Notes: generated from the sequence alone by a model not told the origin. Counted from the stretch's first letter, positions 36,436 through 63,841 are shown. The stretch: 64,000 nt of DNA from Schmidtea polychroa (GCA_044892525.1 CM097885.1:16866001-16930000), one strand, 5' to 3'. Numbers and translations are program-made.

Positions 36436-39129
36436 ATGAGTACCCAAAGACAAGTTAATAATACAAATAATAATGATGAAACACCCGTGTCCACAGTTTC
36501 TGTGGGGAATGGCAAGGAAGGCAGTGATTATGCGAGTTGTCAAAAACTACCTGTAGATCAGTATGGGGGAGATCCGTTGGAATTTGTCGACTTCATGGCA
36601 GATTATTATATGTATGCGACTGCCTATGGATGGAGCCAATCGATAATTGTTCAAAGATTACCGCTATACCTAAAAGGAGCAGCCAGAGAAGCATGGCAAC
36701 AAATTGATAAAAGATTAATAGCAAATGACTGGACAAAGTTGAAAGACACACTTGCAGCTAAATTAATCGGAGGGGATATAAAATGGATGATGCGGCAGAA
36801 ATTCTATAACCGTGTACAAAAGTCAGAGGAATCCGTAAGTGAATTTGCTTATCATTTAACAACCCTTGCAGAGAAAGCATTCGAAGTGAAACCAGAACAG
36901 GCTGAGATGGCAAAGCAAGTAAAAGAGTTGCTACAGGATCAATTTTTGTCCGGAGTAAAGAAAGAAATTAAAAAGGCTTTGTGTTATGTTGATTTTAATG
37001 ACTTTGATGAATTGATTAAAAAGGCAATGAAAATTGAGCTGAATTTAAAAAGTACGCAGTCGAAATCAGAGTCGTTTGCAGTCATATCTGGCGAAAGGGA
37101 AAGATCAATAACTCCATCTAAAAACAATCGGTTTCAACAAACAAGTAGTCCATCACCAAAATTTAGATCAAAATTTCAGTCGAACAAATCAACAGATATT
37201 CAAATTGATGGAAAAGAAGGCCCTATTCAATGTAGTCATTGTCCAAGGATTGGACACTATGTTGACCAATGTTGGTTTAAAAATAGAGTACAGAGAAGCC
37301 CAATTCCAATTCAGTGTGATAATTGCCAAAGAATGGGTCATGACAGCAATCAGTGCTGGTCCAAAAATAATGTACAACGTAGTCCAAGGCAAATGTGGCC
37401 AGATTGGTTAAAAGGAAATGGTGGGAAGAGTTTCACCAAAATGAATATCAATGATCAGCGGAACAATGAGAATTTGCAGTGCTATAATTGCGGAAGGAAA
37501 GGGCACATGTCACGAAATTGTTTTGCCAGATCAAGATCAACGTCAACATCACCATCACCGCAGAGAGATAAAGTAAATTTACAAGGACAAATTCAGTGCC
37601 ACTCATGCAGAGGTTATGGACACATGGTCAGATCATGTCCAAGGAATACGGATAAATTTCAAAGGCCGATATTAAAGAAGTCGATTAGGTTTCAAAGTGA
37701 CAAACCGCAGACAGATAATGTGGCTTTTGTTCAGCCAGATAATTTTAATGAAAGAATTGAAATCGAAGTGAGAGAAATGGGTCGACGTTTAGATCTATTG
37801 ATGTCAAAGTTTGAATCAGACGAGGACTATAATAATCATATGATGTATGAGGCACCGGAAGAATTGAAAAAGAAAGTTATAAAAGATGACTTAGAAAATG
37901 AAAAGGCAACAATGATTATGACAAGAATTGAAAAATTAATTGGAAATAATGAAATAGAGTCGGCCAAAATAATTAAATCGTTGAAGGAATTAAGTCAAAC
38001 ATCCTTGAGCATAAGAAAGATAAAAAGTGTAATTAGCTTGTGTGTTAACTATTATAACATGAATCCAAAGTATAAAGACGAAATTAAGGAATTAATGAAA
38101 ATGTTTGGAAAGATGTTAAGGGAAAATAAAGGGTTAGATTTCATTTTTGTAGAAGTAGTAGATGAGATTGATAAAAGTATAATCTGTTGTCGTTGTGAGG
38201 CAAATGATAGCGTGAATGATTTAAAAATTAAATTAAAAGAGAAACGGGAAGGAGGCATGATAGAATTGAGATTTAATGATAGACCGTTAGAAAACGATGA
38301 ATTCTTGGTAGATTGTGGATTTATACCCGGAAGTAGAAATGAATTAAAAATGGTAAGTGTTGTGAGTGACGATGAAATGAGCATGAGTAGTAGTGAGGAA
38401 ATAATAAAAAGTTCAAATGATATACTAGAGAAATTGAATGACGCGCTATATATTGGAGATGAAGACGAAATCAATGAGAAATTACAAATGATTGACAAAT
38501 CAGAATTTGAAGAAAACGATAAAATAGAAATTGCAAATGCAATACGACCCTATTTATATGTAAAAACTAGATATGCTAAAATGTTAAGAGATTTATTACA
38601 AAGATTGGGCAAGGAGCTCAGGAAGGCAAGAGTTGAATTAAAGCCATTTTTGATAGCATTAGAATATGAGGGATATGGAAAAACGGAATATATAGACGAG
38701 CATTGGTGTACAAAGGTTCGAAAATTACGGAAGAGAGCAGCTGAAACGATGGGGAAAGATGGAATTATTATAGTAATGTACAAAGGTGAAGAACTTGATG
38801 ATGATGAATATTTATATGATTGCGGATGTATTCCACAAGAGCTGGGTGAAAATGGATGTTTGATCCGAGATGGACGAGCGGGATATTTAGTGAACCATAT
38901 TGTTGTAGTAAAGGGAATAAGTTTAGAAATCAAGATTAAGTCCAGCGAGTCTGACACAGAAGCACAAGGTGAAGAAGTAAATGGAAATCAAGAAATTGAG
39001 GAAATCGTTAGTGGTGATGATCAGAAGGAGCTGGATAAAAAAGATCAGTCTACAGAAACAGTACAAGGAGAGCCACTTGCACCAGAAAGCGAAACAAATG
39101 GTGAAAGCAAAAAGAAGAAAGTTAGAACT
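36436..39129 (+). CDS. gag: Polyprotein part 1: Gag (4 CCHC knuckles) plus two helical/ubiquitin-like modules; cut by the Polinton
   Basis: Capsid motifs (YGGDPLEF, LPLYLKGAAREAW, QKSEESVSEF). Knuckles CSHC/CDNC/CYNC/CHSC-x4-H-x4-C. The last 7 aa of the called ORF (SREKCAP) come from the TIR. Confidence 0.9.
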
Positions 39130-39977
39130 AGTAGAGAGAAGTGTGCTCCATGACTCATCGTTTTTTGTCATTTTTTTGCACTACCCCCCCCCCGATGACT
39201 CAGCGCAAAACAAAGACATATGACTCATCGATGACTCATCCATAGCAACAGCGGTAACTGGGTCAAGGTTATATGACTCATCCATAGCAACCGTGGTAAC
39301 CACGGTAACTAGGTCAAGGTCATTCTATTTTTAGTAACTAGGTCAAGGTCATTCTATTTTTAGTAACAATGTCACGTGACGTCATCGATGACTCATCAAG
39401 GTCATTCTATTTTTAGTAACTAGGTCAAGGTCATTCTATTTTTAGTAACTAGGTCAAGGTCATTCTATTTTTAGTAACAAGGTCATATGACTCATCATTT
39501 TTGGAACAAAGCCAACTGACTCATTATTAAAGTATGTATGACTCATCATTTTTTAAACAAAGACATATTTAATATTTAAATAAATACATTTAAACAAATA
39601 TTTAAATAAATACATTTAAACAAATATTTAAATAAATACATTTAAACAAAAATTTAAATAAATACATTTAAACAAATATTTAAATAAATACATTTAAACA
39701 AATATTTAAACAAAGACATTTAATCAAATATTTAAGTACATTTAAACAAAGACATATAGACAAAGACTCATCGATGACTCATAGTTTAGATAGGGGGTTT
39801 CTTTTTTTTTTGCATACCCCCCCCCCTTGTATGACTCATCGATGACTTTTTTGAACAAAGACCAATCATTTATTTTTAAAAGAAAGACTCATCACACGAC
39901 TCTAATTTTTAGAAGACTTCTTTTTTGGTAAACCAAAATTTATTGTATGTCGCTACAGAATAATAATAATAATAACA

Positions 39978-40058
<81 letters not shown>

Positions 40059-40414
40059 TTAATAATAATAATAATAAAAACATACCCATTTCTTCATAAA
40101 AAAGTTTGTTTTCATAAAATTTATTTCATAAATCATATAATTTGTTTTCATAAAAACTGGTTTCATAAAAAAAAAAAAATAAAAATTAATCATAAAAAAA
40201 TTTCATTATAAAAAAATTTAAATCATAAAAAAATAATAATTACCTCATTTGAAAAAGATGTACAAAGTATCGATAACATCTAACCAATCAGAATTGGATA
40301 TTATCGATGCTTTGTTCTCTGAATATGACTCATCGATGAGTCATTGTTACTAACTGAGTAATTTCTACTCACATAAAGACATGCAATACAAGTGCATGAA
40401 ATGTCTTTATGTAA

Positions 40415-40415
<1 letters not shown>
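39130..40415 (+). repeat. Left TIR (continues into an AAT tract)
   Basis: Reverse complement of 54715-55945, apart from a few substitutions, homopolymer and microsatellite length changes, and one 26-bp repeat unit. Confidence 0.95.
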
Positions 40416-40506
<91 letters not shown>

Positions 40507-40509
40507 TAA

Positions 40510-40606
<97 letters not shown>

Positions 40607-40780
40607 CTTAGAAAAATAGTAATCAACAAAATATATTTAAATTACAAATTTACAATTTTACATTGTCATTTTTACAAATGTCTGTTGCATTGATTGTTTC
40701 TTACAATCTTGGCTTCATTGACAACTATTAATAATAAAAAATAATAATTATAATAATAATTATTATTATTACCGAAATGA

Positions 40781-43700
40781 TCAGTAATCTTCTCCGTCAA
40801 AATTGTCGTCATCATCATATATAAAAGTGTCCCCTATCCGATAATGCCCATATGCCAAACTCTTGTTTTTCGATTTCCAATACCGCTTGTCATCTCTATT
40901 TGTCAGCGCCTTCTTAATGTTTTTTATGCTGTACAATTGATGATTTTTGGATGCAATGCGGAATTGTGGCACAGAGTAAACCTTATTGTTAAAATAACAA
41001 TCACGATAGGAATTGTGATCTAAGCCAGTATCTTTCAACGTGACAGATTTTGCTTTAAGAGTTTCTTTATCACCTAATAAGCTGTAACACTTGGGACGAA
41101 GAAACACCCACTCCTTATATCTCAATCCTTTATTCTCGTCTTTGAATTTTCCAATGACGGAATCTAGTGCTCTACTATATAAAGGATGTTGTGGGTTATA
41201 ATTAGATGTGTCAAGCAAGGAGTCACGAATCATGGCAGGTAAGAGAATGTCAAGACTACAATTTTTAATTTCCAAAAAGAAAGAGTCTGTATCACTAGCT
41301 ACTATATTAATTTCACAGTTAAACTCATCGCGATATTTTTGCAATTCATTATACTGCAACTGATACATTCTCAGTTTAGAAAGATCAAGTACAGTTTGCC
41401 CGATGTAGCTGGGCCTATCTAAACATACAGACTCTTTCATAAGCAAAACCGAAATCAAATCATCGTCTATCCTAGTAGATTTCTTAAATGCCGGTTTTGA
41501 GGCATATGTGATAAGTTTTTGTGCGGAATTGCACAGTCGTAAGTTAATACGTTTTTTCAAGTTCTCAACAGTTTTTCCATACAAACTGTTATTGAGCAAC
41601 TTGTAATAGTCTTTATCGAGCGGTGTTATGGATGCGGCTCGTAGTTGTGTGTTGGTATCTATGTATTTCTTGAAGACAGTGCTTTGTGTATACCTAATAG
41701 CCCTATGTACCTTGGTAACAACAACACCTAACTGAAGAAAGATTTGGAGAAGTCGCCAATGTAAAACATAGTGTGTTTTCGGATCGTGTGTAAGTAGCAA
41801 CTTCTCCACTTTAGAAAAAGGTGGGCACATCTTACCAGGAGCTACCGGAAAATCATCTAGTTTGTCATGGATAGATTTCGGTATTTTTAAATCTACTTCT
41901 ATAGTATAGCCATAATCAAGTTGATTTAAATCTTCCGTTGTGCACTCAATTAATAATCTCTCTAAAGCAATGTCATCAGTCACCCATTCAAAACCACCGT
42001 CGGGAAGCTTTTGTGATAAAGCCCATCCATACAGGTTGTTGATGTCAATATACAACAACTCTGTATTTTCATCACTACTAACAAAATGTTTATTCACAAA
42101 CGTTATCCCACCTCTAATCCCACCTTCAAAGAAATTATACATTTCCATGTCGGTGAGAAGCTCAATCGGTTTATCAAGACTTAACAAAGCAGAACTCCAA
42201 GAAAGACTGGGGATACCTAGGAAATTCAAAGGCTCAAGCCTATTATGAGCAATACTCTTAGCTCGGAATTGCTGAAAAAAGTCAGCCAACAGAAATACAT
42301 CTAATTTCAAATAGACCATCATATAATCCAAAAGGGAATTACATGATGTCTCTTGCCAGATTAGTTTTGCTTTATTGTATTCATCATCGGATACATCACT
42401 CCATTTAGGGGGCAATTCTAATGTAGAAATTAATACATCAAGGGAAGTTGCTACATCATAAGGGAAAATCCCTTTACTCTTAATAATAGACCCTCTAAAC
42501 TCAGATTCTGTCAAAGGTAATGTGTTAAGGGTTGAGACAGCATTTTTCAAAGACGAATTTACAAACTGACAAGAATCTATAAATTTCACAGTCAGGGAAT
42601 CAATATGCACAAAAAGAGATAAAAAATTTTCACTTGTCACCGGTATACAAGAAATATGCCAGGACTTATATTTAGCCAAGCCAAATTTGAGGATATGATG
42701 GAGATCATATCCTCTCAAATTATGAAAGACTACAGGTAGTGTGTGGTATATTTTCCTGGAAAGATTACAAGTGTTGCAAGCAGCACCAAGGAATTGACCG
42801 GTAAAGTGATCATGATCCCTGACTGGTTTAACTAATAATTTTTTACACAAATGACAGTTTGTGCTGTTATTAAAATTAATTTGGTCATTTTCTGTGAATA
42901 TCATTTTCTTATTTTTATTTTTATAATAATAGGGAGTTACAATCTTTTTAGCGATATCATTAATTTCTTTTAAAAATTCGTCTATACAAGAAAGGCCTAT
43001 GAATGATTTATAAAATTTTGCGCCTGTATTATTATTTATACATAAAAGTCCAGCCGAAATGGGTAAATGTTTCTGATAATATTTAGAATCTTTAGGAAGG
43101 ATTGCCTCAAAATCGGCATAAATAACAAAAGGAGGAGTAATCATTTTACTATAGTCTGTGAATTCTAATAATGGATCTTTTGGTAGTGTGTACATTGTGG
43201 TTCCTAATTGGTTTCGTTCACAAAGACCTTGATGTTTAATAAAACTATCTTCAAATCTGAATCCATTCAGACATCTAGGACACCACTTACAGTAAATACG
43301 AACAGAACTTATTGATGAATTTCGGCAATTAAGAAAGATGTTTAAATCAGATATAGCGACGTAATGGTAGGTTTTCCGATTCTGTAATAATAACAAATTT
43401 AGACAAGTACCTCCTACTATTTTACTGCGATAAATTATATCTATAAAAGGATGTTTCATGATGGGACCCGAAATTAACCCAGTTTCGTCATAACTTAAAA
43501 CATTAATTGAATAACCTGGGTTTTGTCGTTCAAATTTTGAGATATTTGATAATTTCATTGGCATATCTGCCGGGTTATATATCAGATCTGAAAGGTTATA
43601 AGAACTAGGCAGATGACGCAATTCATCAGGAGTACTATCATATTTTATAAGAGCCAAAACCGAGTAAAGGAAACAAAATTCGTCATCATTATTTACATTT

Positions 43701-44656
43701 ATTATACATTTTTTCCTGATTAATGTTTTCGGGGTTTCAATATATTTACGACCACTCAACCTACTAATCTTTGAATATTTTGTCACAATAAAACTAATGT
43801 ATTCTATTTTGTTAATGGTCCAATTACTTCCCTTTTCATTTATTTTACTAATTTTTTCATTTAAAAGAGAGATACCATCATCAATAAATGTGTCGCTCCA
43901 TACACGAGCAGAGTTTGAGATTATGAAAGACTGAAATTCATCATTTTTCTCAAACTCTACTTTAATACAAAATTGAATTTTTACTGATTTCATTTTATTT
44001 ACAATTTCTAACAATTTTTCTATGAGAACGTCAGGAACAGAAAGAATTTTACAATTCAAGGAAGATATATCCAACTTAACTATTACATGGGAACTATTCA
44101 GGTCGGAAACTACGTCGACTATACCACTACCTACTTGGGGTACAACATCACTATTTTCAAATTCACTATTTTCAAATTCACTATTTTCAAATTCACTATT
44201 TTCAAATTCACTATTTATAACTTCACTATTTATAACTTCACTATTTACAACTTCACTATTTACAACTTCATTACTTACAACATCATCGTCGTCTTCACTA
44301 ATGACTATTATTTCTTTCATCTTTTTTGTGGGAATTTCTGTGGGAATTTCTAAATGTCTTTTATTACCTATTATTCCTATTAATCTATTGACTGTTTCCA
44401 TTAATTGTCGATTTTGTATCAACATGGCATTAATCATACTTTTGTTGGTGGTCCTATTATTGATTTTTGTTGATGTTTCCATTAATTGTCGATTTTGTAA
44501 GTTTTCGGTGTTCCTATTATTAGTTGATGATATATATTTTTGATACGCAATTTTGAAAACTGATTTTTTAGAAGGCATATATTGGGTTAAATGATTACGA
44601 TGTTTATCATAAAATTTGGTATATGTCGATGTTTCAAGAGATGGCATGTAGGACAT
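40781..44656 (-). CDS. polB: Protein-primed family B DNA polymerase with endonuclease VII-like insertion
   Basis: Exonuclease motifs YADFE, FHNLRGYD, YLKLDV. Polymerase motifs YIDINNLYG, KLLNNSLYGK, SDTDS. Insertion CHLC...VRDHDHFTG...CNTCN. 15-bp tandem repeat (NSEVV/NSEFE) at about 44150-44280. Confidence 0.95.
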   Translation of the reverse strand: MSYMPSLETSTYTKFYDKHRNHLTQYMPSKKSVFKIAYQKYISSTNNRNTENLQNRQLMETSTKINNRTTNKSMINAMLIQNRQLMETVNRLIGIIGNKRHLEIPTEIPTKKMKEIIVISEDDDDVVSNEVVNSEVVNSEVINSEVINSEFENSEFENSEFENSEFENSDVVPQVGSGIVDVVSDLNSSHVIVKLDISSLNCKILSVPDVLIEKLLEIVNKMKSVKIQFCIKVEFEKNDEFQSFIISNSARVWSDTFIDDGISLLNEKISKINEKGSNWTINKIEYISFIVTKYSKISRLSGRKYIETPKTLIRKKCIINVNNDDEFCFLYSVLALIKYDSTPDELRHLPSSYNLSDLIYNPADMPMKLSNISKFERQNPGYSINVLSYDETGLISGPIMKHPFIDIIYRSKIVGGTCLNLLLLQNRKTYHYVAISDLNIFLNCRNSSISSVRIYCKWCPRCLNGFRFEDSFIKHQGLCERNQLGTTMYTLPKDPLLEFTDYSKMITPPFVIYADFEAILPKDSKYYQKHLPISAGLLCINNNTGAKFYKSFIGLSCIDEFLKEINDIAKKIVTPYYYKNKNKKMIFTENDQINFNNSTNCHLCKKLLVKPVRDHDHFTGQFLGAACNTCNLSRKIYHTLPVVFHNLRGYDLHHILKFGLAKYKSWHISCIPVTSENFLSLFVHIDSLTVKFIDSCQFVNSSLKNAVSTLNTLPLTESEFRGSIIKSKGIFPYDVATSLDVLISTLELPPKWSDVSDDEYNKAKLIWQETSCNSLLDYMMVYLKLDVFLLADFFQQFRAKSIAHNRLEPLNFLGIPSLSWSSALLSLDKPIELLTDMEMYNFFEGGIRGGITFVNKHFVSSDENTELLYIDINNLYGWALSQKLPDGGFEWVTDDIALERLLIECTTEDLNQLDYGYTIEVDLKIPKSIHDKLDDFPVAPGKMCPPFSKVEKLLLTHDPKTHYVLHWRLLQIFLQLGVVVTKVHRAIRYTQSTVFKKYIDTNTQLRAASITPLDKDYYKLLNNSLYGKTVENLKKRINLRLCNSAQKLITYASKPAFKKSTRIDDDLISVLLMKESVCLDRPSYIGQTVLDLSKLRMYQLQYNELQKYRDEFNCEINIVASDTDSFFLEIKNCSLDILLPAMIRDSLLDTSNYNPQHPLYSRALDSVIGKFKDENKGLRYKEWVFLRPKCYSLLGDKETLKAKSVTLKDTGLDHNSYRDCYFNNKVYSVPQFRIASKNHQLYSIKNIKKALTNRDDKRYWKSKNKSLAYGHYRIGDTFIYDDDDNFDGEDY

Positions 44657-45612
44657 AACAAGTATGTTACACTTTTATATTCATGACCATAATATTTTTC
44701 CATAATATCGTCACAGTCATGATGTGTAACACTGTTACAAAAGGTTGGATATTTATAACCTATAAAATAAGTAAAATAGTATTATTATCAAAATTATTAT
44801 TATTATTATTATCAAAATTATTATTATTTATTATTACTATATAATCTGAGTTTATACGACAAAATATTCTGTCCCTCCCTTGCTCATAAGTGTATTATAT
44901 TTAAATTTATTTTAATTAAATAAAAACATATTCATTTTCTTTATAAAAATTAATTTCATTATTTGTTTCATAACAAAATTGACTTCATACATTTTCTTTA
45001 TAACAAAATTGACTTCATATTAATTTAAAAAATCATAATAATTTAAAGTAAATTAATTTAAAAATCATAATAATTTAAAGCATATTAATTTTAAAATTTT
45101 AAAAAACCTACATTTAGGTTTCTTGCACGCGAGATTGTGTACAGCATTATTTACTAAAAAATCATAATAATAATAATAATTTAAAAATTAAATTTACCAT
45201 AATTTCCGGAAACATTATTTTCAATTCCATTACTTGCTGAAAAATTATAAGTTCCCGAAACATTATTTTCATTAATGTAGACTAAAATATAAATAAAAAT
45301 AAAAACATATTAAAAAAAAAAATTACCCATACGATTTCTTCGAATAATTTCCTTGATTTCATTTGAAATATTTTGCATTTTGAATAAATGAAAAAGAATT
45401 ACAAAAACATAGATTATATATGTAACGTTTATCCAATCAAAATGCAGATAGGATAGAAAAAATTAACGCACACATATTCATGTCTTTGTTTAAAAAAGAA
45501 TGAGTCATCGATGACTCACATAGTAACAAATAATGTCTTTGTTACTCACATAAAGACATGCAATACAAGTGCATGAAATTTGTTGATATGAATAATAAAA
45601 TTAATTAATAAT

Positions 45613-45672
<60 letters not shown>

Positions 45673-45694
45673 CTTGTGACATTTAATACATTTA

Positions 45695-46079
45695 TTAAAC
45701 AAAATTATACATTGATAACAACCATGCAAGGCAATGTTGGCCACAAGTAATTGAAAATGGATTTTGATACCGAGTTCGATTATATACAATAGGTTTACCA
45801 ATAGTTTGCAATTTACTAATTAATAAATTTGGGTAATAATATCCAAAGGGATCGAATGCATATACTCGGTTTGGTTTCACATATACAGCAATCCAATGTT
45901 CACCTCCTAAACTAGATGTATGAGTATTGACGATTATGGCTTGATTATTTCTCAAATATGGAATTTTATCCAGTGGATAAACTCCAAGAAATTCGTTTCC
46001 CAATAATTGAGTACCAATTCGAGACACCTGAATAGAACTAATCAATAAGTTAAATTATAAAATAAAAATCTTACTCCAT
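45695..46079 (-). CDS. Adenain-like cysteine protease (probably with a 37-bp intron 46038-46074)
   Basis: NT...GEHW, FDPFG and YQ....TCGQHC catalytic motifs. ATG GA|GTAAGA...TTAG|T TCT gives MDSIQVSRIG. Confidence 0.88.
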
Positions 46080-46109
46080 AAAAAACTTTAATCTTTTAAA
46101 TTTCTTCAT

Positions 46110-47336
46110 TTATACTAGTACAGTTCGATTTGCAGTAATTTGGATTTCATTTTCAAAAACCCCATAGATTATTACATGGACTGGTTCAGTAGTTGCTTTA
46201 CCGAACTTAATATCCAATCTCAAATTGCCACTTTGAGGTAATTGACTTTGATTTAAATCAAAATCTGGAGCCAGAACAAATGTGAAAAATGGATAGAATG
46301 TTTTGAATTCTTCCAGACTTATACCACAATTAAGATTTTTATCCAAATATCCTAAATTTCTGACAAGACTTTGCATATATGAAGTACAATAATTATCATT
46401 ATCAAAATCTTGAGTATAAGTTTCTCGATAATCAGTATTTTTCGATAATGAAAGAGAAGTTACACTAAAGTGTTTGAATTTTGATGAAGATGTATCATAA
46501 GATCCGTTATATTGAGCTTCACTTTGAAAAGTTACAAGGATAAAATTAGGCATTCTTCGATCTCCAAATATTTGGTCCTTGTAAAAAGATGATGCTCCTT
46601 TAGCAATTGCAAATGATACAATTTCTTTTGTTTTTATCGGATAAATTGCATGTTTGGTATTTAATCCAATTTGATGTCCCGCTAATACAGACGATTCACA
46701 TCGAACTCTTCGAACCATTAATTTGGCATCGAGTAATATTAATTTAGGTGCTGCACCTGCAACTCCAGTTGATAATGACAATGCAGAATCAGATCTTTTC
46801 AATCTCATATGTACATTAACACCTGGTAGTAAATATTTGGGTTGATCCATAAAATCCAATTGTAGAGATGAACACATGTTGAAAGTTTTTGAGCCTTTAA
46901 TCCACTTTTTTCGATCATCAGATACACCATATCCCATTGGAGTTAGACAAGTATCTTTAGTATCATTATTATAATTTAAAATAGTTTCGATAATTGCCTT
47001 GTGAGCATATGTATTGTTTCCACCCTCAATTTTAATGTTATTAAATCCAAGAATAACATCTTTAAAGAGAGTATGAAACAAGAAATTATTAGGTTCAGTT
47101 GTATCATCTGCAGCTAATGCTTTATTGTCTTTATCTACAACTTTTATTTGAACATACAACAAAGTATCGTTCAAATCTAAATATTCTGTTTGAGAACCAT
47201 TAATGTAAAATTCCACATCATTTCTACTATCGGTAATAGAATTCATTGGAAATACATCTTCAAATGCTCCATATTCGATAACCGCCTGAGGCGATGGTCG
47301 ATCAAATAGACATAATTCAGATTTACCGCAAATCAT
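46110..47336 (-). CDS. Major capsid protein (double jelly-roll)
   Basis: 408 aa with Polinton MCP-type motifs KSELCLF, YLDLNDTLLYV, HTLFKDV, QPKYLLPGV and GNLRLDIKF; position within the element fits. Confidence 0.88.
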   Translation of the reverse strand: MICGKSELCLFDRPSPQAVIEYGAFEDVFPMNSITDSRNDVEFYINGSQTEYLDLNDTLLYVQIKVVDKDNKALAADDTTEPNNFLFHTLFKDVILGFNNIKIEGGNNTYAHKAIIETILNYNNDTKDTCLTPMGYGVSDDRKKWIKGSKTFNMCSSLQLDFMDQPKYLLPGVNVHMRLKRSDSALSLSTGVAGAAPKLILLDAKLMVRRVRCESSVLAGHQIGLNTKHAIYPIKTKEIVSFAIAKGASSFYKDQIFGDRRMPNFILVTFQSEAQYNGSYDTSSSKFKHFSVTSLSLSKNTDYRETYTQDFDNDNYCTSYMQSLVRNLGYLDKNLNCGISLEEFKTFYPFFTFVLAPDFDLNQSQLPQSGNLRLDIKFGKATTEPVHVIIYGVFENEIQITANRTVLV

Positions 47337-49371: not shown

Positions 49372-49458
<87 letters not shown>

Positions 49459-52072: not shown

Positions 52073-52125
<53 letters not shown>

Positions 52126-52352
52126 TAATAATAATAATAATAATCATACATGTGCAACATTAATGCAATTTAAACAAAGACACATTAATGCAAACCATGT
52201 GCAACATTGATGCAATTTAAACAAAGACATGTGCAATACAAATGCAAAGCATGTGCAACATTGATGTAATTTAAACTTTAATCTGATTGGTTGTTCCATT
52301 TATTTTGAAGGTATAAAAACCCTGTACCATTTCATTTTAATCATAATTCACG

Positions 52353-52760: not shown

Positions 52761-52912
52761 TGTATTTAATAAATGTATATAATGTATTTTAATAAATGTA
52801 TTTAATGTATTTAATCTTATTTATTTTATTAATATTAATGCAACAGTAATGCAAATTTAACAAAGACATTCTATAAACAAACTTACATTATAGTTTAAAA
52901 GTGTTAATAAAA

Positions 52913-53329: not shown

Positions 53330-53371
53330 ATTTTAAATTTTGTTTTTTATACATAAGAAAAATAACAAAAA

Positions 53372-53558
53372 TTAATATTTATTTAAATATTTAAATAACA
53401 TATACAATAAAACAACTCCTGTTGTGAGTTTAATATAGTTTTTCATTTTTCTTTTGATTTCATCAGTTTCTTTAGCATTGCGGGCGAGTTGATTGAGTAT
53501 ATCCCATCCGCCATTATCTTCTATCCATGGACTAAACTTGGATTTGATTATCTAAAAA

Positions 53559-53613
<55 letters not shown>

Positions 53614-53914
53614 TTACTTCTAAAGACCACTGATAATAATGTTCTGAGTCATGTTGGCTTTTCGCAATGATTATCTTCATGTAGGTGAACCCTACAATAA
53701 TTCTTGTCCATTTCATGTCTTCATCGCAGAGACATTGAAATATATTGTTAAAATAATTCTTCTTTGATTCAAGACAATCCATATCAAGCATTCTCTGGTA
53801 GTCGATATGGTTGCCTTCAATAATTTGTTCGGTCCGATTGACCAGGAAATTGAGGCTGTCGACTATATTCGCTGTGACTAGTCCATTTAGAACGTTTTCA
53901 ATAAATTTAGACAT
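53372..53914 (-). CDS. Bcl-2 family protein, two exons (53618-53914, 53372-53551), 158 aa
   Basis: BH1-like KWTRIIVGF. The intron GAA|GTAAAT...TTTAG|ATA restores BH2 PWIEDNGGWD and the tail anchor LTTGVVLLYMLFKYL. Confidence 0.85.
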
Positions 53915-54023
53915 TTTTTACAATAATTTTTAATATACTGTCTTATTTATACTACTGTGTGTGTAATATGATTCTGATTGGTTGATAGACTATAAATGTA
54001 AAACATAATAGATTTGATACAAC

Positions 54024-54524
54024 ATGAAAACTATATTTCTATTGCTAATTATTATAAGGAGTGTGTGCTCACACAATACGACAATAACGGTGGAGTCTTT
54101 TAATAAATCAATATGTATTTGTCCAAATACCGCCAAGTTGATGGATATTTTATATATTCTTGACAAACCAAAATGGGCAAAGCATCCAGGAAAAAGAATA
54201 TCCCAAAGATTGGAGAATTTAGAAAACAGCTATGACCTATCTTTTGAATATATACAAAATATAAAATTTAAATTGATTGATCATATTGAGGTTTTCAATA
54301 ACTCAATTGTTGAAAATAAAAAGAATATGAAAATTATTGATAAGAAACATGAACATTTGTTAAGAAAGATTGATTTAATAATATTCGAAATTCGAACAAT
54401 AAAAGAATCGATAGAAAATTTGAAAACCAATTCAACGTTACCAATTTCAAACAAGATGGCAGCAAATATGAGTACATCAATATTTAAATGGCCATTGTTA
54501 ATTTTAAATTATTTCATTGTTTAA
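54024..54524 (+). CDS. Hypothetical secreted/surface coiled-coil glycoprotein
   Basis: Signal-like MKTIFLLLIIIRSVCS, several N-x-S/T sites, heptad-rich middle and hydrophobic C-terminus. Confidence 0.6.
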   Translation: MKTIFLLLIIIRSVCSHNTTITVESFNKSICICPNTAKLMDILYILDKPKWAKHPGKRISQRLENLENSYDLSFEYIQNIKFKLIDHIEVFNNSIVENKKNMKIIDKKHEHLLRKIDLIIFEIRTIKESIENLKTNSTLPISNKMAANMSTSIFKWPLLILNYFIV

Positions 54525-54625
54525 TAAATGTATTGATTTAAATTATCTTTTGTCTGATATATTATTATTATTATTGGCATAAATATTATTAATTTAATTA
54601 TTATTATTACTAGTATTGTCATAAA

Positions 54626-54714
<89 letters not shown>

Positions 54715-54715
<1 letters not shown>

Positions 54716-55067
54716 TTACATAAAGACATTTCATGCACTTGTATTGCATGTCTTTATGTGAGTAGAAATTACTCAGTTAGTAACAATGACTCATCGATGA
54801 GTCATATTCAGAGAACAAAGCATCGATAATATCCAATTCTGATTGGTTAGATGTTATCGATACTTTGTACATCTTTTCAAATGAGGTAATTATTATTTTT
54901 TTATGATTTAAATTTTTTTTTTATAATGAAATTTTTTTATGATTAATTTTTATTTTTTTTTTATGAAACCAGTTTTTATGAAAACAAATTATATGATTTA
55001 TGAAATAAATTTTATGAAAACAAACTTTTTTATGACGAAATGGGTATGTTTTTATTATTATTATTAA

Positions 55068-55124
<57 letters not shown>

Positions 55125-55945
55125 TGTTATTATTATTATTATTCTGTAGCGACATACAATAAATTTTGGTTTACCAAAAAAGAAGTCTTCTAAAAATTAG
55201 AGTCGTGTGATGAGTCTTTCTTTTAAAAATAAATGATTGGTCTTTGTTCAAAAAAGTCATCGATGAGTCATACAAGGGGGGGGGGTATGCAAAAAAAAGA
55301 AACCCCCTATCTAAACTATGAGTCATCGATGAGTCTTTGTCTATATGTCTTTGTTTAAATGTACTTAAATATTTGATTAAATGTCTTTGTTTAAATATTT
55401 GTTTAAATGTATTTATTTAAATATTTGTTTAAATGTATTTATTTAAATTTTTGTTTAAATGTATTTATTTAAATATTTGTTTAAATGTATTTATTTAAAT
55501 ATTAAATATGTCTTTGTTTAAAAAATGATGAGTCATACATACTTTAATAATGAGTCAGTTGGCTTTGTTCCAAAAATGATGAGTCATATGACCTTGTTAC
55601 TAAAAATAGAATGACCTTGACCTAGTTACTAAAAATAGAATGACCTTGACCTAGTTACTAAAAATAGAATGACCTTGATGAGTCATCGATGACGTCACGT
55701 GACATTGTTACTAAAAATAGAATGACCTTGACCTAGTTACTAAAAATAGAATGACCTTGACCTAGTTACCGTGGTTACCACGGTTGCTATGGATGAGTCA
55801 TATAACCTTGACCCAGTTACCGCTGTTGCTATGGATGAGTCATCGATGAGTCATATGTCTTTGTTTTGCGCTGAGTCATCGGGGGGGGGGGTTATGCAAA
55901 AAAATGACAAAAAACGATGAGTCATGGAGCACACTTCTCTCTACT
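54715..55945 (-). repeat. Right TIR
   Basis: Inverted copy of 39130-40415. Confidence 0.95.
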
Positions 55946-55951
55946 AGAACT

Positions 55952-56520
55952 TTATATGAAATAAAGAAATATTTAGTGAGGTTAGAACAAGATGTAGACG
56001 AAACTAAGGACGTTTTGAAACTTCTCGTTAAAGCAGTATATTCGATGTTCGAAATAGAGATAGAAGTAGAGGATGAACTAAAAGGAGTAGTTAAAGAAAT
56101 GAAAAATAGACTGCCTGAAGTAGTACAGAAATTTGGCGAAGAGGATACATTTTGCGAGAGATCAGTAATTGAAAATTTAACAAAAATTGAAATTAACAAG
56201 GATGTGATAATAACAGCTTTAACTTATATTGTTTTAGAAATTGGAACGTATGCGTTCGCGAAATCAGATAAATTAGATAACTTGATAGACATCGGTGCCA
56301 GACTAGTAAACGAATATCTAATGAACTGGGTAAAGGAAAATGGTGGTTGGAGAACACTGTGTTTGTCTCTAACAGAAAAGAAAAACGAGAAACAAGAGAG
56401 GAAACCACCTCAAAAACGAGTCAATGAGAGAGTTCGACCAGAACTGAGAAAAACTATGATATTTCCGTGGGCAATGTTTATGATGATTACATTTTGTGCA
56501 ATAATTACGCAGACATCATC
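55952..56520 (+). CDS. Polyprotein part 2: Bcl-2-like domain plus hydrophobic signal/anchor
   Basis: In frame with Gag across the TSD (VRT|LYEIKK). BH2 NWVKENGGWRTL, degenerate BH1 INKDVIITALTY, then hydrophobic MIFPWAMFMMITFCAII. Confidence 0.75.
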
Positions 56521-58320
56521 ATTAGTTGCATATGATTGCTCCCAAACTGAAATGGGAAAAATTTATTCAGTAGTTGATATGTCGGAATACCCAGGTGCGT
56601 ATCCTAGTAAACTGAAAATAGAAAATGATATAAAATATTACGTGTATCAAGAGTCTGATTTACGAAGAACTCAAGTAAGAGAGTGTATTGTCAAACATAC
56701 AACATTTGTATTCTATTGTGACAAATGGAGTCATACGTCACTTATAAAAATGCATGCGATACCTAGACCAGTTGAGGTACTCCCAGAAAACTGTCTAACA
56801 GCATTTCAAACCGGAGAATTAAAAATAAGTCCGGAAATTCGTTTAAAGGAAAATTGAATCATAGGATACGAGAAACAATAATTGTAAAAGGAGTTATGAA
56901 AGCAAATGGCGATTGTGAAGGTGAACCATACAAAATGAATGGTAAAATTGTTCAGCACACAGTTGTGATGGAAGAATATCTCACAGAGTTAAGAGAGTTC
57001 GAAGGAGCTTTCGACGATGATACGGGAAAGCTACAAACACATCCATTCTGTAATATGAAACAAACAAATTGTCAAACGGGGGAATCGATTCTTGTCTATA
57101 ATGTCGAAACCAATAAGTGTAATTTAGCACACTTAAAAACTATGAATTTTAAAGAGCTAGTGGGAGAACAGTTTAGAGATAAACCTGATAGTTTTAATAC
57201 GAAATATAGACCAAATGATACTATTAAGTCAACTCCAATATGGACAAAACAAATGGGAACAGTTTTAATGTCTACATTACCAGAAGATGGCATGCGATTT
57301 GTAAAAAAGGAAATCACCTACAAATGTGGTCGAATGGTGTATGTAACAAATTATAAAGGCGTTTATGTGTCTAGAAATGTTGTGGAAGAGGCAAAAATTA
57401 AAATTCACAGAGATGATATTAAACTTACTCATTATTTTAATAATAAAATTGATTATTTGTTTCATTTTAGTCAAAACATCATGGAAAATGTATATAGAGA
57501 AATGATTCTAAACGATTGCAAGCTGAACAAAGAGATTCTTCGAAATCGAATGGCGATGGCAATTACGAATCCAAATTTAGTAGCACCTATGCTAATATCA
57601 GAAAGTGGCGTGTTTGCGAGAATTTTTGGAGAAGCGTTATACAGTTACAAATGCAAAGAAGTCTCAGTGAAAATTACTAAATATGAAAAATGCACAAACG
57701 AACTACCAGTAAGCCTCGGTGGAAAGATACGATTTATGGAACCGATAACTAGAATTTTGCTTGATGAACAAACTAAACCAAAGATTTTACAATGTAATAG
57801 ATTATTAGCACCCTTATACCGATTAGCAACAGATTCATGGATAGCTTTACCAGACTATCGTGGAGTCAAGACTCCAGACAAATTAGAATCAACAAATCTA
57901 GAATACCTGATAAATTTCACATCATTAAACAAAATGGCACAAATGGGTTTGTACCCAAGCGAGGATATTGAAGAAGCTCAAAGAAATTTGTTGTTTTCAT
58001 CCAAGAAAGAACGAGTAATTTCAGAAATGATTGACACGATATTATCGAATGGGGAAGGAAAAGTAAATTACGAGTATTTGCTAACACCTGATCATTTCAA
58101 ACGAGCTACATACAAAACGATGGAAAAGATTTGGGGTAAGTTCATGTTTTTGGGACAAGCATGTGCAGGCTTAATCGGAATTTACGTAATCGTGATAACA
58201 GCAAAGGTGATAGTGTCACAGATATTATCAGTACATCGAATATATGCAATATCTGGATGGTCATGGAAATTGATTATTGGCTGTATTCCATTGTTGGCCA
58301 GATTCTTTATTACAGATCAT
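56521..58320 (+). pseudogene. Polyprotein part 3: chuvirus/gB-like class III fusion glycoprotein (one frameshift ~56850)
   Basis: LVAYDC, VRECIV...FYCDKWSH, GDCEG, DCKLNKEIL...GEALYSYKC...CTNELPV...FMEPITRIL...C, followed by TM segments. Confidence 0.75.
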
Positions 58321-58679
58321 CAATTTAAAGAAATGGCAAGAGTAAGAGTGCAGTTGAGAAATGGCAGAAGAAGTGAGGAATCTACATGTCAGTCGGAAGA
58401 CAAAAACGACGATCATAACAATGACAGTAGCAACGGCGAATCAGAACATAAATGCTTTCGAAAAAGTGTAATAAAAAGTAAAATGGAGCCAGAATCCAGA
58501 TTTTTACTTGAACCAATGCCAAAACTAAGTGGAATTGATACTCTTACTAGATGGTACACTCCAACATTTAAACCAACAGCACCAATATATCCAAATGAAC
58601 AATTAAAAGAAATGAAACCTGTAGATAATATCACAATCGAATTAGAAAAGATTGAACCAACGAGTGCTGAGATTGAAAG

Positions 58680-61600
58680 AAAAAATATGCTTGGTCTACC
58701 ATGCAGCTATGCACTAATGACAACAGTAGTAGGAGGAAAACAACCTCGAATAAACATACAGTTTAACAAGAGAAAAGTGGAAGCTTTATTAGACTCAGGC
58801 TCAAGTCATACTATAGTAGCGGAAAGCTTCTTGACGTATCAGGAGAAAGCCAAAATAAAACCAACGAATCACATTATTAAATCAATGTCACATAATGCAC
58901 TAAATATTGTTCGAAAATTAGAAGTTAAACTGATAATTGGAGATCAAGAAATAATTCATTGGGTATCAGTGATGAGAAAAAGTCCTGTAAAATGTCTTAT
59001 TGGCATGGATGTCATGGAGCAACTACATGGAATTTCTCTTGATCTGAGAACTGGAAAACTAATAAAAGGACAAATGGGTGAAGTAGTGCCTGAAGTAGGA
59101 GAGGTATTTCTAAACCAAACATTGGAAGTACCACCAAAAAGCGAAGTAATATACTATGCAGATGTTATGAGGGTATCAGATGAGGAGTACATATTTGAAC
59201 CAAATCCAAAGCTGGTTGAAAAATACGATTTGCCTATGTGTGACGAAGTAGTGAAAGTCCAAAATAAGTCAGTACCAGTTAGAATAACAAATTATAGTGC
59301 AAGATCCGTTGAAATAAAGCCCAAAACCAAATTGGGAAAATTGACAAAAATCAAATCAGAGGAAGCTCAGAAGTTACCGAGAAATATAAAAATTTATAAA
59401 GAACCTCAGATCACAAACAAAGATTTAACGGATTTACAAAAACAAGAATTTGGTTCATTATTAAAGAAATATAGAAACGTATTTGCAAAACATGATTATG
59501 ATTTGGGACTCACTCAGGTGATTGAGCATGAAATACCATTACTCAGCGAAACCCCAATAAAATTACGGCCGTATAGAATGCCATACACACATCAGGAAGA
59601 AAGTGATCGGCAAATCAAAGCAATGAAAGAATTCAATATAATAAGAGATAGTTCCTCACCATTTTCATCATCAATAGTAGTAGTGAAAAAGAAGGACGGT
59701 GATTTAAGATTTTGTGTCGACTATCGAAAATTGAACCAAGTTACGAGAAAAGATACATATCCTATTCCTGTTCCACAGGAAATGTTCGATCAGATGGGAG
59801 AGGTGCAATATTTTACGGTAATAGATCTTAACAAAGGATATAATTAATTTTAAAGAAGATAGAAGGAAAACTGCATTTTCAGATGGGAAGGGTCTATATG
59901 AGTTTAACGTGTTACCATTCGGATTAACAGGAGCACCTGCTACATTTCAGAGAGGTATGAATTTTGTTTTGCGCGATATACCACATGCATTAGTGTATAT
60001 TGACGATATAATAATATTTTCGAATAGTTTTCAGGAACATTTGCAGGATGTGGAAACAGTATTCAAGCGATTGTTAGAAGCAAACTTAAAAATAAAACCC
60101 TCCAAATGTGAATGGGGGAAATCTGAAGTCGTTTATGTGGGTCATATCATTTCGCGTCGAGGTTTGCAAATCTAGAAAATTGAGAAATATCCTATTCCCA
60201 AGGATGTAGATCAGGTTCGACAATTTCTGGGATTAGCTAGTTATTACAGAAAATTTATTAAAAACTTCTCACATGTCGCACAACCTTTGAATATGTTGTT
60301 AAAAAAGCAAGCAAAATTTAAATAGACAACAGCGCAGCAAGAAGCGTTTGATAAACTCAAAGAAAGTTTAATTAAACAACCAATATTGAGATGCCCAAAC
60401 TTTAAAAACCCATTTATTTTAATGACAGATGCCAGTAACTTCGCGTTAGGCGCGGTATTAGGACAGCAAGTAGAAAGGGAAAAAGATCATGTAATTGCTT
60501 ATGCCAGCAGATCATTGAAACCTCATGAAAAGAATTATTCAACAATCGAAAAAGAAACGTTAGCATTGGTATATGGGATAACTACTTTTCGACAATATCT
60601 AGTGGGCAGAAAATTTGTCGTCTTTACAGATCACAATCCGTTACAATGGCTAATGAAGCACAGAGATTCAGCTAGTAAATTAATTAGATGGTCAATCGCG
60701 TTACAAGAATATGATTTCGAGATAAAGTATCGTACAGGGAAGTCAAATGCAAATGCAGACGCTATGTCAAGAATACCAGTGGAAAATAATGTTGATCAGG
60801 ATGAGAAAAATTGCGAAAATACAATATTTATGGCAATAAAAACCGCAAATAATATAGAAAAATTACAAGATGATCAAGAAAATGACGAGGAATTAAATCA
60901 GTTACGCCAACATGCTGTCACAATCAAAAAGGAGAGTGACTGGAAACATGTTATCGAGGAAAACCATAAATACATTATCCATGATGGTTTGTTAAAATGT
61001 GTGCAAAATGAAAATTTACTAATTATTGTTCCGACAAAACATCGAAAAGCATTACTGTTGTTGTATCACGATGGAGCATTGGGAGGTCATTTATAATCGC
61101 GAAAAACATTATCAAGATTGAGACAGAAATATTATTGGAAAACAATGGAACAAGATGTCAGACAATGGTGTCATACTTGTCAGATATGCCTAACTAGACG
61201 AAATACGGGACGAAAAATAAAAGTTCCACTTAAGCCTATGCCTGTACCAACGGCACCAATGGAAATGACAGCAATGGATATCGTCGGTCCATTGCCGGAG
61301 ACAACTAATGGCAATAAATACATTATTGTTTTTTGCGATTACCTTATAAATGGCCAGAAGCTTATGCAATCCCAAATCAAAAATCAGAAACAGTTGCGAA
61401 AATATTTGTAGAGAATATTATTTTTCGATATGGAGCACCAAAGAAATTACTAACAGATCAAGGAACAAATTTCCAGAGTGAATTATTTAAGTCAATTACA
61501 GAATTATTTGGTATATTGAAACTTAGTACTTCACCATATCATCCACAAACAGATGGTCTAGTGGAAAGATTTAACGGGACGTTAATTAATATGATATCAT

Positions 61601-62130
61601 CCTATGTGAATAGAAAACAAAAGGACTGGGATTTATTCATCAAACCATGTTTATTTGCGTATCGAAATGCAATAAATGCAAGTACTGGTGAAACGCCTTT
61701 CTATCTCATGTATCTAAGACGAAACAATATGCCAATCGATCTAGAATTTCAGTCACCTATTTCCCAATATATGGATGCATCAGATTATAAAGTAGTTATG
61801 CAGGAAAGACTACAGTCAGTATGGGTCAAAGCAGGACTTAAAATAAAGCATCATCAAGAAGCATATAAAGAATGCTATGATAAACGCGCACGGGCGCATG
61901 ATATTGAAATTGGAGATCTAGTGTATATAAACAAACCAGAACCAACAAAGGGATTGTCAACGAAATTACAACGACCGTTTAAAGGACCATATCTGGTATG
62001 CGATACAACATAGACTAATTTAAAATTGCGTCCACAAAACAATAAAAAGGCTGGAACAATCATCGTTCATGTAAATAGATGTAAAAAGATACTAGCAGAA
62101 TATGAATCACGTTACCCATTAAGATCAAAA
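58680..62130 (+). pseudogene. pol: Polyprotein part 4: protease, RT, RNase H, integrase (several stops and frameshifts)
   Basis: LLDSGS, RFCVDYRKLN, LPFGL, YIDD, TDAS...TDHNPL, H-H-C-C, MDIVGP, TDQG, ERFN and GPY. Lesions near 59845, 60175, 60322, 61095, 61345 and 62011. Confidence 0.93.
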
Positions 62131-63633
62131 CTTAATAAAGATGAAGGAAACACATTCCTTAAACAAAAGTTTACAAAAAACCCTGCCCCATTGAGTTACA
62201 TCAATAAAGTTTTATTGATTACAACAGTAATGATTATCAATATAATGTCAGTAAATGCAGTGAGAGTATTCCCGTTATATGCAACTAATACAGTTGTATT
62301 ATTAGACAAAGTTCATATTTATTCAACATGTACTAAAATAGTTTGGGTTTATTATGCTGGAGAAGCAGAAGAAATAGAGATAAATAATCTAATAAACTAT
62401 TTTGAACCCCCAATAAAATTGAACAGCACCAAAAATATTTATGTGGCTAGACAATTAACAATGAATTATGAATACCCTTGGTTAATTACGCAATTGGATT
62501 CGAAAAGTAATAATACAAAACTACAAAATCTTATACGCATTAATATTTGGACAAAGAGATTACAAAATCGGGTATCAATTGAACCATTGGTAAATGGAAT
62601 TGACGTATATTGGGAACCCCGTGAATCCCAACAAATAAAAATAGTTTTTCAAAATTATGCGATCGATACACTGAACAGCAGAAAACCCTTTGTAAATTAT
62701 GTCAATTTAAAACAACATCACACGTATAATATTCACATTCATTATTATGAAAAATCTCTATATGAAAATGGAACCGAAACTAACAGTCAATGGGTCAAAA
62801 TCCATTCTAGTCAACACATGATACGATTAGTTAATGAAACAAACCGAGTAATCTTTCACATCTACAATCAAACGGTGAATGTTTCCCGGAAAACGGACCC
62901 CAATCAAAAAGCTATTTTACATTATTACGGAAAAATTCAATTAATATTAAATGAAAAAAATAAATCTCAAATATTGACTTTTCGTCAACGTTCACCAATA
63001 TCGACGTCAAAATTAGTGTTCATCAAAATTAAATATTATAGACGATCTCTATATTCAAATCTGTGGCAATTGACTTTAGTCGAAAAGACATTCGTGCAAA
63101 TTCCAATTGCCAATTTGCAGCATGAATATCGAAATGTTCCAGATCAATCAAATCAAATTCCAAGCTCTGTCAAAGGAGCCGTCATTTCTAACATTAATGC
63201 ATCAATTAACAATAACGAAACCATATCATCATTAAATACTGATAATGACATTGTGTGTGTAACATTATTATCAACTAGTCTAACTATAATAATCTTTCTC
63301 ATTATTCTCATCATCATTGTGTCAATTGAATCTCGAACAATATCCAAATCTCATACGAACCAATCCGAGATTGCGAGACTTTGGATTGTCTATGAAAAAC
63401 TTTTGTGTAGTAAGATACAAATACTTTGCATGCACACAGTGCTCGAAGTGGAACAAAATATGTGCCGGGATAGGCATGCTGTGGCACCCGGGATTCCAGG
63501 CTTTTATGCAGAAATTTTCAGTTGGGTGTGTTGCAAAACTTTGGGGGGGTGTCCAACAAATTTTATATATAGACACATTATATATAGAGGGGGTCGCAGT
63601 ATAAATAACTCAACAAACAACTTGCTGGTTTAA
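62130..63633 (+). CDS. Polyprotein part 5: type I membrane protein with FN3-like ectodomain
   Basis: Same frame as the integrase C-terminus. Signal-like VLLITTVMIINIMSVNA, GIDVYWEP...NLKQHHTYNIHI, many N-glycosylation sites, TM IVCVTLLSTSLTIIIFLIILIIIVSI. Confidence 0.65.

Positions 63634-63715: not shown

Positions 63716-63841
<126 letters not shown>

Follow-up and report, generated by a model that had tools for sequence, protein, structure and literature searches.

The window analyzed here, a stretch of 64,000 nucleotides (nt) from Schmidtea polychroa (GCA_044892525.1 CM097885.1:16866001-16930000, one strand, 5' to 3'), contains two sets of open reading frames (ORFs) on the + strand that are separated by 16.8 kb of mainly minus-strand genes. 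The first frame extends stop-to-stop (standard code) over positions 36313-39153 (946 codons, with the first ATG at 36436 and 905 codons from there on), and the second series of frames runs from 55850 to 63633. The span very probably derives from one insertion, now decayed, of a Ty3/Gypsy endogenous retrovirus of Burro-like type that was split by a Polinton. Comparison with other genomic copies supports the conclusion that the ancestral element encoded one polyprotein of ~3,400 amino acids (aa), with the module order Gag (four CCHC knuckles), two ubiquitin-like domains (Ubl1 and Ubl2), Bcl2-like region, fusion glycoprotein, protease (PR), reverse transcriptase (RT), RNase H (RH), integrase (IN), and a C-terminal membrane module. 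This architecture is already published, so that the window element, in its decayed state, belongs to a kind already described; what remains new is the C-terminal membrane module and an exonuclease gene.

Extent of the provirus and the nested Polinton

The 5' long terminal repeat (LTR) of the provirus occupies positions 34940-35875 on the + strand (936 nt, TG...CA, with the termini TGTTGGG...CCCAACA), and the 3' LTR is found in direct orientation ~8780-9650 bases beyond the window end (in the adjoining stretch, L011). The two LTRs differ by 1 substitution in 868 aligned bases and one 68-nt tandem-repeat indel, and a 4-bp duplication, ATAC, borders both of them on the outer sides. Judging by the LTR positions, the element starts at 34940 and ends ~9650 bases beyond the window end, which replaces the span 36436-63633 given in an earlier note on this DNA. 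The insertion measures ~38.7 kb in total, of which ~22.8 kb belong to three nested transposons. A 19-mer opening with TGG (35880-35898, + strand), located 4 nt past the LTR, is a candidate primer-binding site (PBS), and the purine run AAAGGGGGAGA lies immediately upstream of the 3' LTR. A search for a tRNA gene with a 3' end matching the candidate PBS leads to 8 genomic sites; ARAGORN identifies zero tRNAs in the 4 sites that were scanned, Rfam gives no match for 2 of these 4, and one matching site that was inspected resembles a decayed PBS copy.

The insert between the two sets of frames (39130-55945, - strand, 16,816 bases) is a Polinton/Maverick element, given its terminal inverted repeats (TIRs) of ~1.4 kb, the 6-bp target-site duplication, and three hallmark genes. 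The TIRs (39128-40570 versus 55947-54560) are 94.5% identical over 1447 columns, and the insert reads AGTAGAGAGAAG... at its 5' end and ...CTTCTCTCTACT at its 3' end; the duplicated target site, AGAACT, is present at 39124-39129 (left copy) and 55946-55951 (right copy). The protein matches include Peptidase_C5, the adenovirus-type protease (1.4e-7), the rve integrase (5e-7), and a Pox_A32-type ATPase (1.2e-6); the integrase additionally shows a weak Chromo match that is under the cut-off for that family (E 3.1e-4). All these features are shared with known Polintons/Mavericks, from which the insert differs in that its putative polymerase and capsid candidates lack sequence matches and in that it carries an extra TBP-like ORF. 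Specifically, a search with the 1297-codon ORF yields no match in Pfam (E<=1), PHROGs, or PDB sequences, and the capsid-sized ORFs of 409 and 351 codons are likewise unmatched in both Pfam (E<=1) and PHROGs. Going by size, position, and motifs, the former is a putative polymerase and the latter two are candidate capsid proteins. The TBP-like ORF (51126-51584, + strand, PF00352, 2.9e-16) is an unusual Polinton cargo, and so is an ORF on the - strand (53552-53917) with a weak Bcl-2 match (E 0.0045, under the cut-off) that recalls the Bcl-2-like part of the host provirus.

Joining position 39129 to 55952 preserves the frames of 36313-39153 and 55850-56857, as follows from coordinate arithmetic. 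An uninterrupted copy of the provirus elsewhere in the genome spells ...KNKKVRTLYEIKKYL... over the exact Polinton site; at the protein level, it reads KKVRT up to the site and LYEIKKYL from the site on, with a single AGAACT codon pair. Because this insert-free copy reads through the junction, the two sides belong to one ORF, and the single AGAACT represents the pre-insertion state. The coordinates and the insert-free copy thus agree with the proposal made from the sequence of the window that removal of the Polinton and one AGAACT fuses the two ORFs in frame. The downstream partner in that proposal, an ORF of 317 aa, is reproduced (its Met is located within the Polinton TIR and its stop at 56857); the length of 923 aa quoted for the upstream partner is superseded by the codon counts given above.

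The second nested transposon (~2.5 kb, - strand) begins near 63432 and continues beyond the window end (63432-64000 in the window); it has ORFs on the minus strand, and homology to the intact copy ends at 63434 and restarts ~1950 bases past the window end. A third nested transposon, hAT-like, 3.5 kb long, and with a duplication of 8 bp, also lies past the window end. By homology, the native stop of ORF1 is at ~63408; owing to a frame change near 63396, this stop is bypassed, and bases 63409-63633 (225) are read-through into the nested element. The end of the ORF at 63633, as originally proposed, is moved accordingly.

A single frame across genomic copies

Other copies of the provirus were sought with a 373-aa piece of the glycoprotein in the 781-Mb assembly (four large contigs), which gave 2445 first-look candidates, 110 of which were scored. 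An open frame of 3413-3565 codons is present in 24 of these 110 copies, with a length of exactly 3437 codons in 18. The scored copies form two groups: 88 are 93-95% identical and include all 24 with the long frame, and 22, among them the window copy, are 98-100% identical, with the longest open frame reaching 2557 codons. Among these 22 scored members of the window's own subfamily, none has a complete frame. One uninterrupted copy, analyzed as three overlapping stretches taken separately (unjoined), serves as the reference; it measures ~17.3 kb from LTR to LTR and its frame of 3437 codons is open from L012:2342 to L013:5152, with a Met at codon 42 that leaves 3396 aa. These frames bear out the suggestion of an ancestral single polyprotein of ~3,400 aa, and conserved stops between the modules, the finding that would speak for separate ORFs, are absent from the long-frame copies.

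The part of ORF1 that precedes the Polinton (36436-39129, + strand) is open from the ATG without a premature stop and encodes Gag, a linker, Ubl1, Ubl2, and an acidic linker. Gag is recognized in the intact copy with a match that passes the cut-off (Retrotrans_gag, 4.4e-7). Its four CCHC zinc knuckles (37231-37638, + strand) match zf-CCHC with 4.9e-8 in the window copy and 1.3e-8 in the intact copy, where four C-x2-C-x9-C patterns are found in codons 307-442. The assignment of Ubl1 (38134-38355, + strand) comes from a weak match to PF00240 (E 0.004, 17.3 bits, profile positions 1-63 of 72; E range 0.004-0.016) that is under the curated cut-off of 25.4 bits. Ubl2 (38641-38916, + strand) has no Pfam match at E<=1 and is a lead only: the named ESM Atlas clusters to which it comes closest are those of ubiquitin/Rad60-SLD (score 0.89), and this clan is common to 9 of the 10 best. 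Beyond the Polinton, the weakly matching Bcl-2-like region (55952-56371, + strand) hits PF00452 with E 0.0037 in the window copy and E 3e-4 in the intact copy (profile positions 1-100 of 100), both under the cut-off of 31.4 bits, and resembles the Bcl-2/BID clusters of the ESM Atlas (score 0.84). Searches for homologs of the Ubl-Ubl-Bcl2 region (308-980 aa and 981-2800 aa) find none, and a search of PDB sequences with this region returns nothing meaningful. The fusion glycoprotein (56453-58215, + strand) consists of a signal-like stretch (56453-56509), an ectodomain, and an anchor (58141-58215), with a frame change near 56849; it matches PF24664, "Monjiviricetes_fusion", in two frames of the window copy (6e-13 and 1.6e-65) and in a single frame, upstream of RVP, in the intact copy (1.6e-87). 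Accordingly, the order of the modules listed in the earlier note holds in the intact copy, the Ubl and Bcl-2 labels in that list being based on Pfam matches that remain under the cut-offs.

The Pol modules follow in the order PR-RT-RNase H-IN, both in the intact copy and in that of the window. In the window, all on the + strand, they comprise an aspartic protease (58738-59028, RVP 9.5e-7, with the DSG motif at 58783-58818), a broken RT (59518-60151, RVT_1 2.3e-22), RNase H (60326-60712, RT_RNaseH 2.4e-40, with a premature stop just upstream, near 60323), and a broken integrase with its zinc, core, and C-terminal parts (61028-62088, Integrase_H2C2 6.4e-11, rve 1.5e-6). The corresponding values for the intact copy are RVP 3.1e-6, RVT_1 4.7e-33, RT_RNaseH 1.1e-39, Integrase_H2C2 9.6e-20, and rve 2e-11. 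MATH, BIR, ankyrin, and dUTPase domains are not detected in the intact copy, with thresholds of E<=0.05 for the frame in its entirety and E<=1 for the PR-RT spacer.

When the window copy and its uninterrupted sister are compared codon by codon (one pair, no statistical test), the ratio of nonsynonymous to synonymous substitution rates (dN/dS) is 0.13 over the full frame. In the individual modules, it amounts to 0.08 (Gag), 0.21 (Ubl1), 0.11 (Ubl2), 0.19 (Bcl2-like region), 0.06 (glycoprotein), 0.08 (IN), and 0.27 (C-terminal ectodomain), so that every module, the accessory ones included, looks constrained, in a manner expected under purifying selection. The synonymous divergence (dS) is 0.03-0.13 over PR to RT (window positions 58700-60200 versus L013) and 0.3-0.6 elsewhere, and therefore suggests that the two subfamilies are mosaic in PR-RT, via recombination between them.

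The provirus copy in the window is defunct. Compared with the uninterrupted reference, it contains four premature stops (near 59845, 60323, 61094, and 62011), four frame-changing length differences (near 56849, 59852, 61346, and 63396), a 15-nt loss near 60167-60175 in the RT region, and the three nested transposons; there is no stop in the first 1850 codons. In agreement with the view that the breaks sit within conserved domains, the glycoprotein, RT (the stop near 59845 and the frame change near 59852), and IN (the stops near 61094 and 62011 and the frame change near 61346) are all hit. The pol region spans 2622-2625 bases in 20 full-length matches (96-97% identity) and 2601 bases in the window copy, and the deletions of the window copy are therefore private. 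An apparent private divergence of ~3% is an artefact of a non-homologous end and one patch of 800 bases; when these are set aside, ~0.8% of private substitutions are left. No one class of changes dominates among the 169 private changes examined for hypermutation. The nearly identical LTRs sit oddly with such a heavily lesioned copy. Most of the lesions may have been inherited from a defective progenitor that was mobilized in trans; alternatively, the LTRs may have been homogenized by conversion or by assembly polishing.

Several other explanations of these observations have to be considered. That the two flanks of the Polinton come from different elements and join in frame by chance has nothing in its favor and is practically negligible as an alternative, considering that the uninterrupted copy continues through the same junction with one AGAACT codon pair, that the entire frame is found in 24 of the 110 scored copies, and that one LTR pair with one 4-bp duplication encloses both flanks; the sequences to the left and right of the duplication prove to be parts of one ORF. 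It is also very improbable that the breaks are assembly errors in a copy that is intact save for the insertions: two of the single-base frame changes (near 56849 and 63396) do lie in A runs, and the LTR pair is nearly identical, but the four premature stops are substitutions, the remaining length differences of 8 and 13+2 bases are unlike homopolymer slips, the deletions are private to the window copy (2601 bases versus 2622-2625 in the 20 relatives), and the three nested transposons disable this copy regardless. Somewhat more room, within what still seems unlikely, is left for the single frame being a matter of layout only, such that the glycoprotein and the C-terminal module would be made mainly from spliced subgenomic RNAs and the full chain rarely or never. 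The Env proteins of retroviruses and of Drosophila gypsy are made from spliced RNA. Four contig runs of guessed kind cover the ORF with zero internal joints and are uninformative on expression and splicing. Translation through the entire frame is favored by its being open across 3437 codons in 18 scored copies, with no stop between modules, and by the glycoprotein, which lacks a Met-led ORF of its own and has its signal directly after the Bcl2-like part, in frame. The preferred reading is that of one translated polyprotein. Dozens of copies in this genome still keep that frame open. If the reading is correct, one translation unit of a metazoan Gypsy-type provirus can accommodate the capsid and host-modulating domains together with a fusogen of the envelope and the enzymes for replication, which bears on the transition from retroelements to enveloped viruses and on transposon control in a regeneration model.

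Published relatives of the family

Burro elements are reportedly also to be credited to Jurka 2007 and Grohme 2018. According to the accessible part of the paper by Arkhipova and Yushenova on Burro1/GYPSM1 of Schmidtea mediterranea (PMC6431247), this element exceeds 30 kb and has a 4,873-aa ORF1 that encodes Gag with three CCHC knuckles, MATH, Ubi2/SUMO-like, and BCL2 motifs, and env, followed downstream of env by PR, a dUTPase-like part, RT, RH, and IN, plus accessory ORFs. Its env matches mononegavirus fusion glycoproteins and is described as located "in-frame ... between gag and pol", a situation that the authors, in 2019, claim to be the first such case; BCL2-like motifs are reported also for Burro-2, -3, and -4 (PMC6431247). 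The expectation that Burro may already cover the architecture proves correct to this extent: the in-frame env and the Ubi2/SUMO-like and BCL2 motifs upstream of it are published in the same source (PMC6431247).

In the portion of the Burro description that is available, the features common to Burro1 and the present family are those of a planarian Gypsy-type element with a very long ORF1, CCHC knuckles, in-frame env, PR-RT-RH-IN, and accessory ORFs; Burro elements, furthermore, occur in thousands of copies. The differences, as far as this portion goes, are the length of ORF1 (4873 aa in Burro1 versus 3437 codons), the size of the element (>30 kb versus ~17 kb), the number of knuckles (three versus four), and the MATH, BIR, ankyrin, and dUTPase motifs of Burro1, none of which is matched in the present family and which Burro-2 to -4 need not carry. 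The counterparts of the Ubi2/SUMO-like and BCL2 motifs of Burro1 in the present family are the weak matches under the cut-offs discussed above. A membrane module past IN or an exonuclease ORF is not mentioned in the accessible text of the Burro paper (PMC6431247), and a search of the partly available literature finds neither in planarian elements, a result that Grohme 2018 may cover. In the S. polychroa genome, Burro1 was sought via its BIR domain, which leads only to a separate high-copy ORF of 392-393 codons, and via its dUTPase, which leads only to a single locus of two exons, presumably a host gene, whose frame is short (190 codons). The BIR-domain ORF is a repeat distributed genome-wide (mostly 392-393 codons, with 150 of 150 scored sites over the cut-off and a best E of 8.4e-15) and is outside ORF1 of the present family. 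The query P0006 retrieves from the genome the present family only, at 28-32% identity.

Another close match is with the S. mediterranea Ty3/Gypsy elements Smed_errantivirus_1 to _6, for which the accessible part of the source (eLife 2026, PMC13524379) gives the order GAG-ENV-POL, an ENV of the "HSV/gB-type", and copy numbers of 45, 215, 3, 8, 1, and 1, respectively. The ENV core of Smed_errantivirus_1, as shown there, differs from that of the present family at 53 of 251 positions (~79% identity, counted by eye), and none of the six ENV cores is identical to it. By this count, the present family is a sister family. The main text of the errantivirus paper, in its accessible form, does not contain the words polyprotein, ubiquitin, Bcl-2, or fibronectin and hence describes neither the single frame nor the additional modules, and its table gives no tRNA primer (PMC13524379). 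To the extent that the two sources are available, they assign the glycoprotein class differently, as mononegavirus-type for Burro (PMC6431247) and as gB-type for the errantiviruses (PMC13524379).

A further parallel is Atlas virus, an endogenous retrovirus among the hookworm belpaoviruses, with one Gag-Pol-Env polyprotein of 2,828 residues in which the glycoproteins come after the integrase (bioRxiv 10.1101/2021.11.23.469668, accessible part). The common feature is the presence of membrane glycoproteins after the integrase inside one polyprotein. Atlas virus, however, as described in that part of the preprint, is a Bel/Pao rather than a Gypsy element, carries as its env, at the C-terminus only, a GN-GC pair of phlebovirus type (class II), and has neither an env between gag and pol nor Ubl or Bcl-2 parts. 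Against this published background, the present element adds a smaller sister family, a conserved post-integrase membrane module, an exonuclease accessory gene, and a clean case of Polinton-in-provirus nesting with both duplications intact.

The C-terminal membrane module, the accessory gene, and adjacent repeats

The C-terminal membrane module (62191-63408, + strand) contains a signal-like stretch (62191-62259), an all-beta ectodomain, an anchor (63250-63321), and a short tail, with the frame change at ~63396. The hydrophobic stretches of the intact copy are found at codons 1112-1130, just before the glycoprotein; 1675-1703, after its ectodomain; 3037-3055, ~40 residues past the last recognizable integrase motif; and 3392-3410, 27 residues ahead of the stop. 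Eleven N-x-S/T sites are present in codons 3109-3373 versus two in the glycoprotein ectodomain. The last ~400 residues show no match to a Pfam family, and 1.84 billion representatives include 4 relatives of the module, for which a cluster look-up gives no family name. One of these, a protein of 410 aa that stands free and possesses both a signal-like stretch at the N-terminus and an anchor at the C-terminus, is 24% identical across the entire ectodomain, and another begins within an integrase tail.

A Foldseek search with the model of this module identifies, as top matches, the tandem fibronectin type III (FN3) receptors IL-22R/IL-10R2, IFNGR, tissue factor, and tenascin (E 4e-4 to 1e-3); overall, the matches to tandem FN3 receptors have E 4e-4 to 5e-3 and TM 0.13-0.36. 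VIA-align superimposes residues 248-341 on FN3/Ig-like sandwiches over 66-93 residues with Z 6.3-8.1, a range common for beta-sandwiches, and with a root-mean-square deviation of 2.3-5.3 A (two rows at 5.0-5.3; one 154-residue row at 8.4). The label "FN3-like" is reasonable but unproven for this module. Of the terminal FN3/TM module originally proposed, the membrane module is retained, and the FN3 part is weakly suggested by the model (predicted local distance difference test, pLDDT, 46), Foldseek (~4e-4), and VIA-align (Z 6.3-8.1).

The second ORF of the provirus family consists of 496 codons (L013:5566-7053 in the intact copy) and matches RNase_T (6.5e-4) and phrog_192, "DNA polymerase exonuclease subunit" (7e-8); it is a predicted downstream DEDD exonuclease gene. 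In the window copy, this ORF is split by the hAT-like insert into two parts (L011 ~2410-3033 and 6383-7225) that are located past the window end.

A tentative proposal is that the polyprotein extends past the integrase into a second type-I membrane glycoprotein, FN3-like and with its own internal signal, and that an exonuclease gene is encoded alongside. Under the mechanism envisaged here, the genomic RNA would be translated as one chain that crosses the endoplasmic reticulum membrane four times. Gag-Ubl-Ubl-Bcl2 would remain cytosolic; the first internal signal would send the glycoprotein ectodomain to the lumen, and its anchor would bring the chain back, leaving PR-RT-RH-IN in the cytosol; the second internal signal would send the C-terminal ectodomain to the lumen, and the final anchor would leave a 27-aa tail. 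Signal peptidase could then cut behind each signal and the protease of the element could cut the cytosolic joints, and the Ubl and Bcl-2-like parts might act on the host ubiquitin and cell-death pathways. If true, this would be a retroelement with two surface proteins per chain and a four-pass, flavivirus-like topology in which Pol is membrane-tied in between. The idea that two membrane proteins are freed by internal signal peptides is borne out insofar as both modules have a signal-like stretch and an anchor, the release itself being conjectural.

An alternative that appears possible, if doubtful, is that the C-terminal module is a captured host FN3-type surface receptor, acting in host modulation or superinfection exclusion, rather than a virion protein. 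The best structural matches are indeed tandem FN3 receptors (IL-22R/IL-10R2, IFNGR, and tissue factor, Foldseek E ~4e-4 to 9e-4), CD45 and CD148 are matched at VIA Z 6.6-7.0, a free-standing relative exists, and no other folded module has a dN/dS as high as the 0.27 of this one. These matches, however, come from a model with pLDDT 46, Z values of 6-8 are common in any beta-sandwich, the relatives are just 4 in 1.84 billion representatives with none family-named, and no host gene was identified for the module.

A number of observations weigh against the proposal of a Burro-like polyprotein with two membrane glycoproteins. The AlphaFold model of the C-terminal module, built from six sequences, is all-beta and poor (pLDDT 46), and only residues 250-340 reach pLDDT 66-83; cleavage and topology rest on hydrophobicity and the free-standing relative. 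Upstream, the Ubl1 and Bcl-2 matches are under the Pfam curated cut-offs, Ubl2 has none in Pfam, and the single-sequence fold of Ubl-Ubl-Bcl2 (pLDDT 41) is unusable. Searches of PDB sequences with the glycoprotein sequence and with a 7-sequence profile match no solved structure. Finally, the family is ~17 kb rather than >30 kb long and has no MATH, BIR, ankyrin, or dUTPase match, and the Burro label is given by description only.

The window contains several other repeats and genes upstream of the provirus. An apparently intact compact Gypsy element (21724-26427) is bounded by LTRs of 152 nt with 100% identity and encodes a gag-like frame of 449 codons as well as a pol of 1062 codons in the order PR-RT-RH-IN (RVT_1 5.4e-36, rve 3.9e-14). 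Direct repeats of 1 kb with 90% identity, located 20 kb apart (7128-8146 and 27454-28465), possibly represent the LTR pair of a further large element around the compact Gypsy. On the - strand, a DUF4371 frame (32419-33195, 2.2e-21) is probably a transposase-derived fragment, and a host exon-like frame (1301-2383) encodes the C-terminal OB-fold of RMI1 (PF16099, 3.9e-18).

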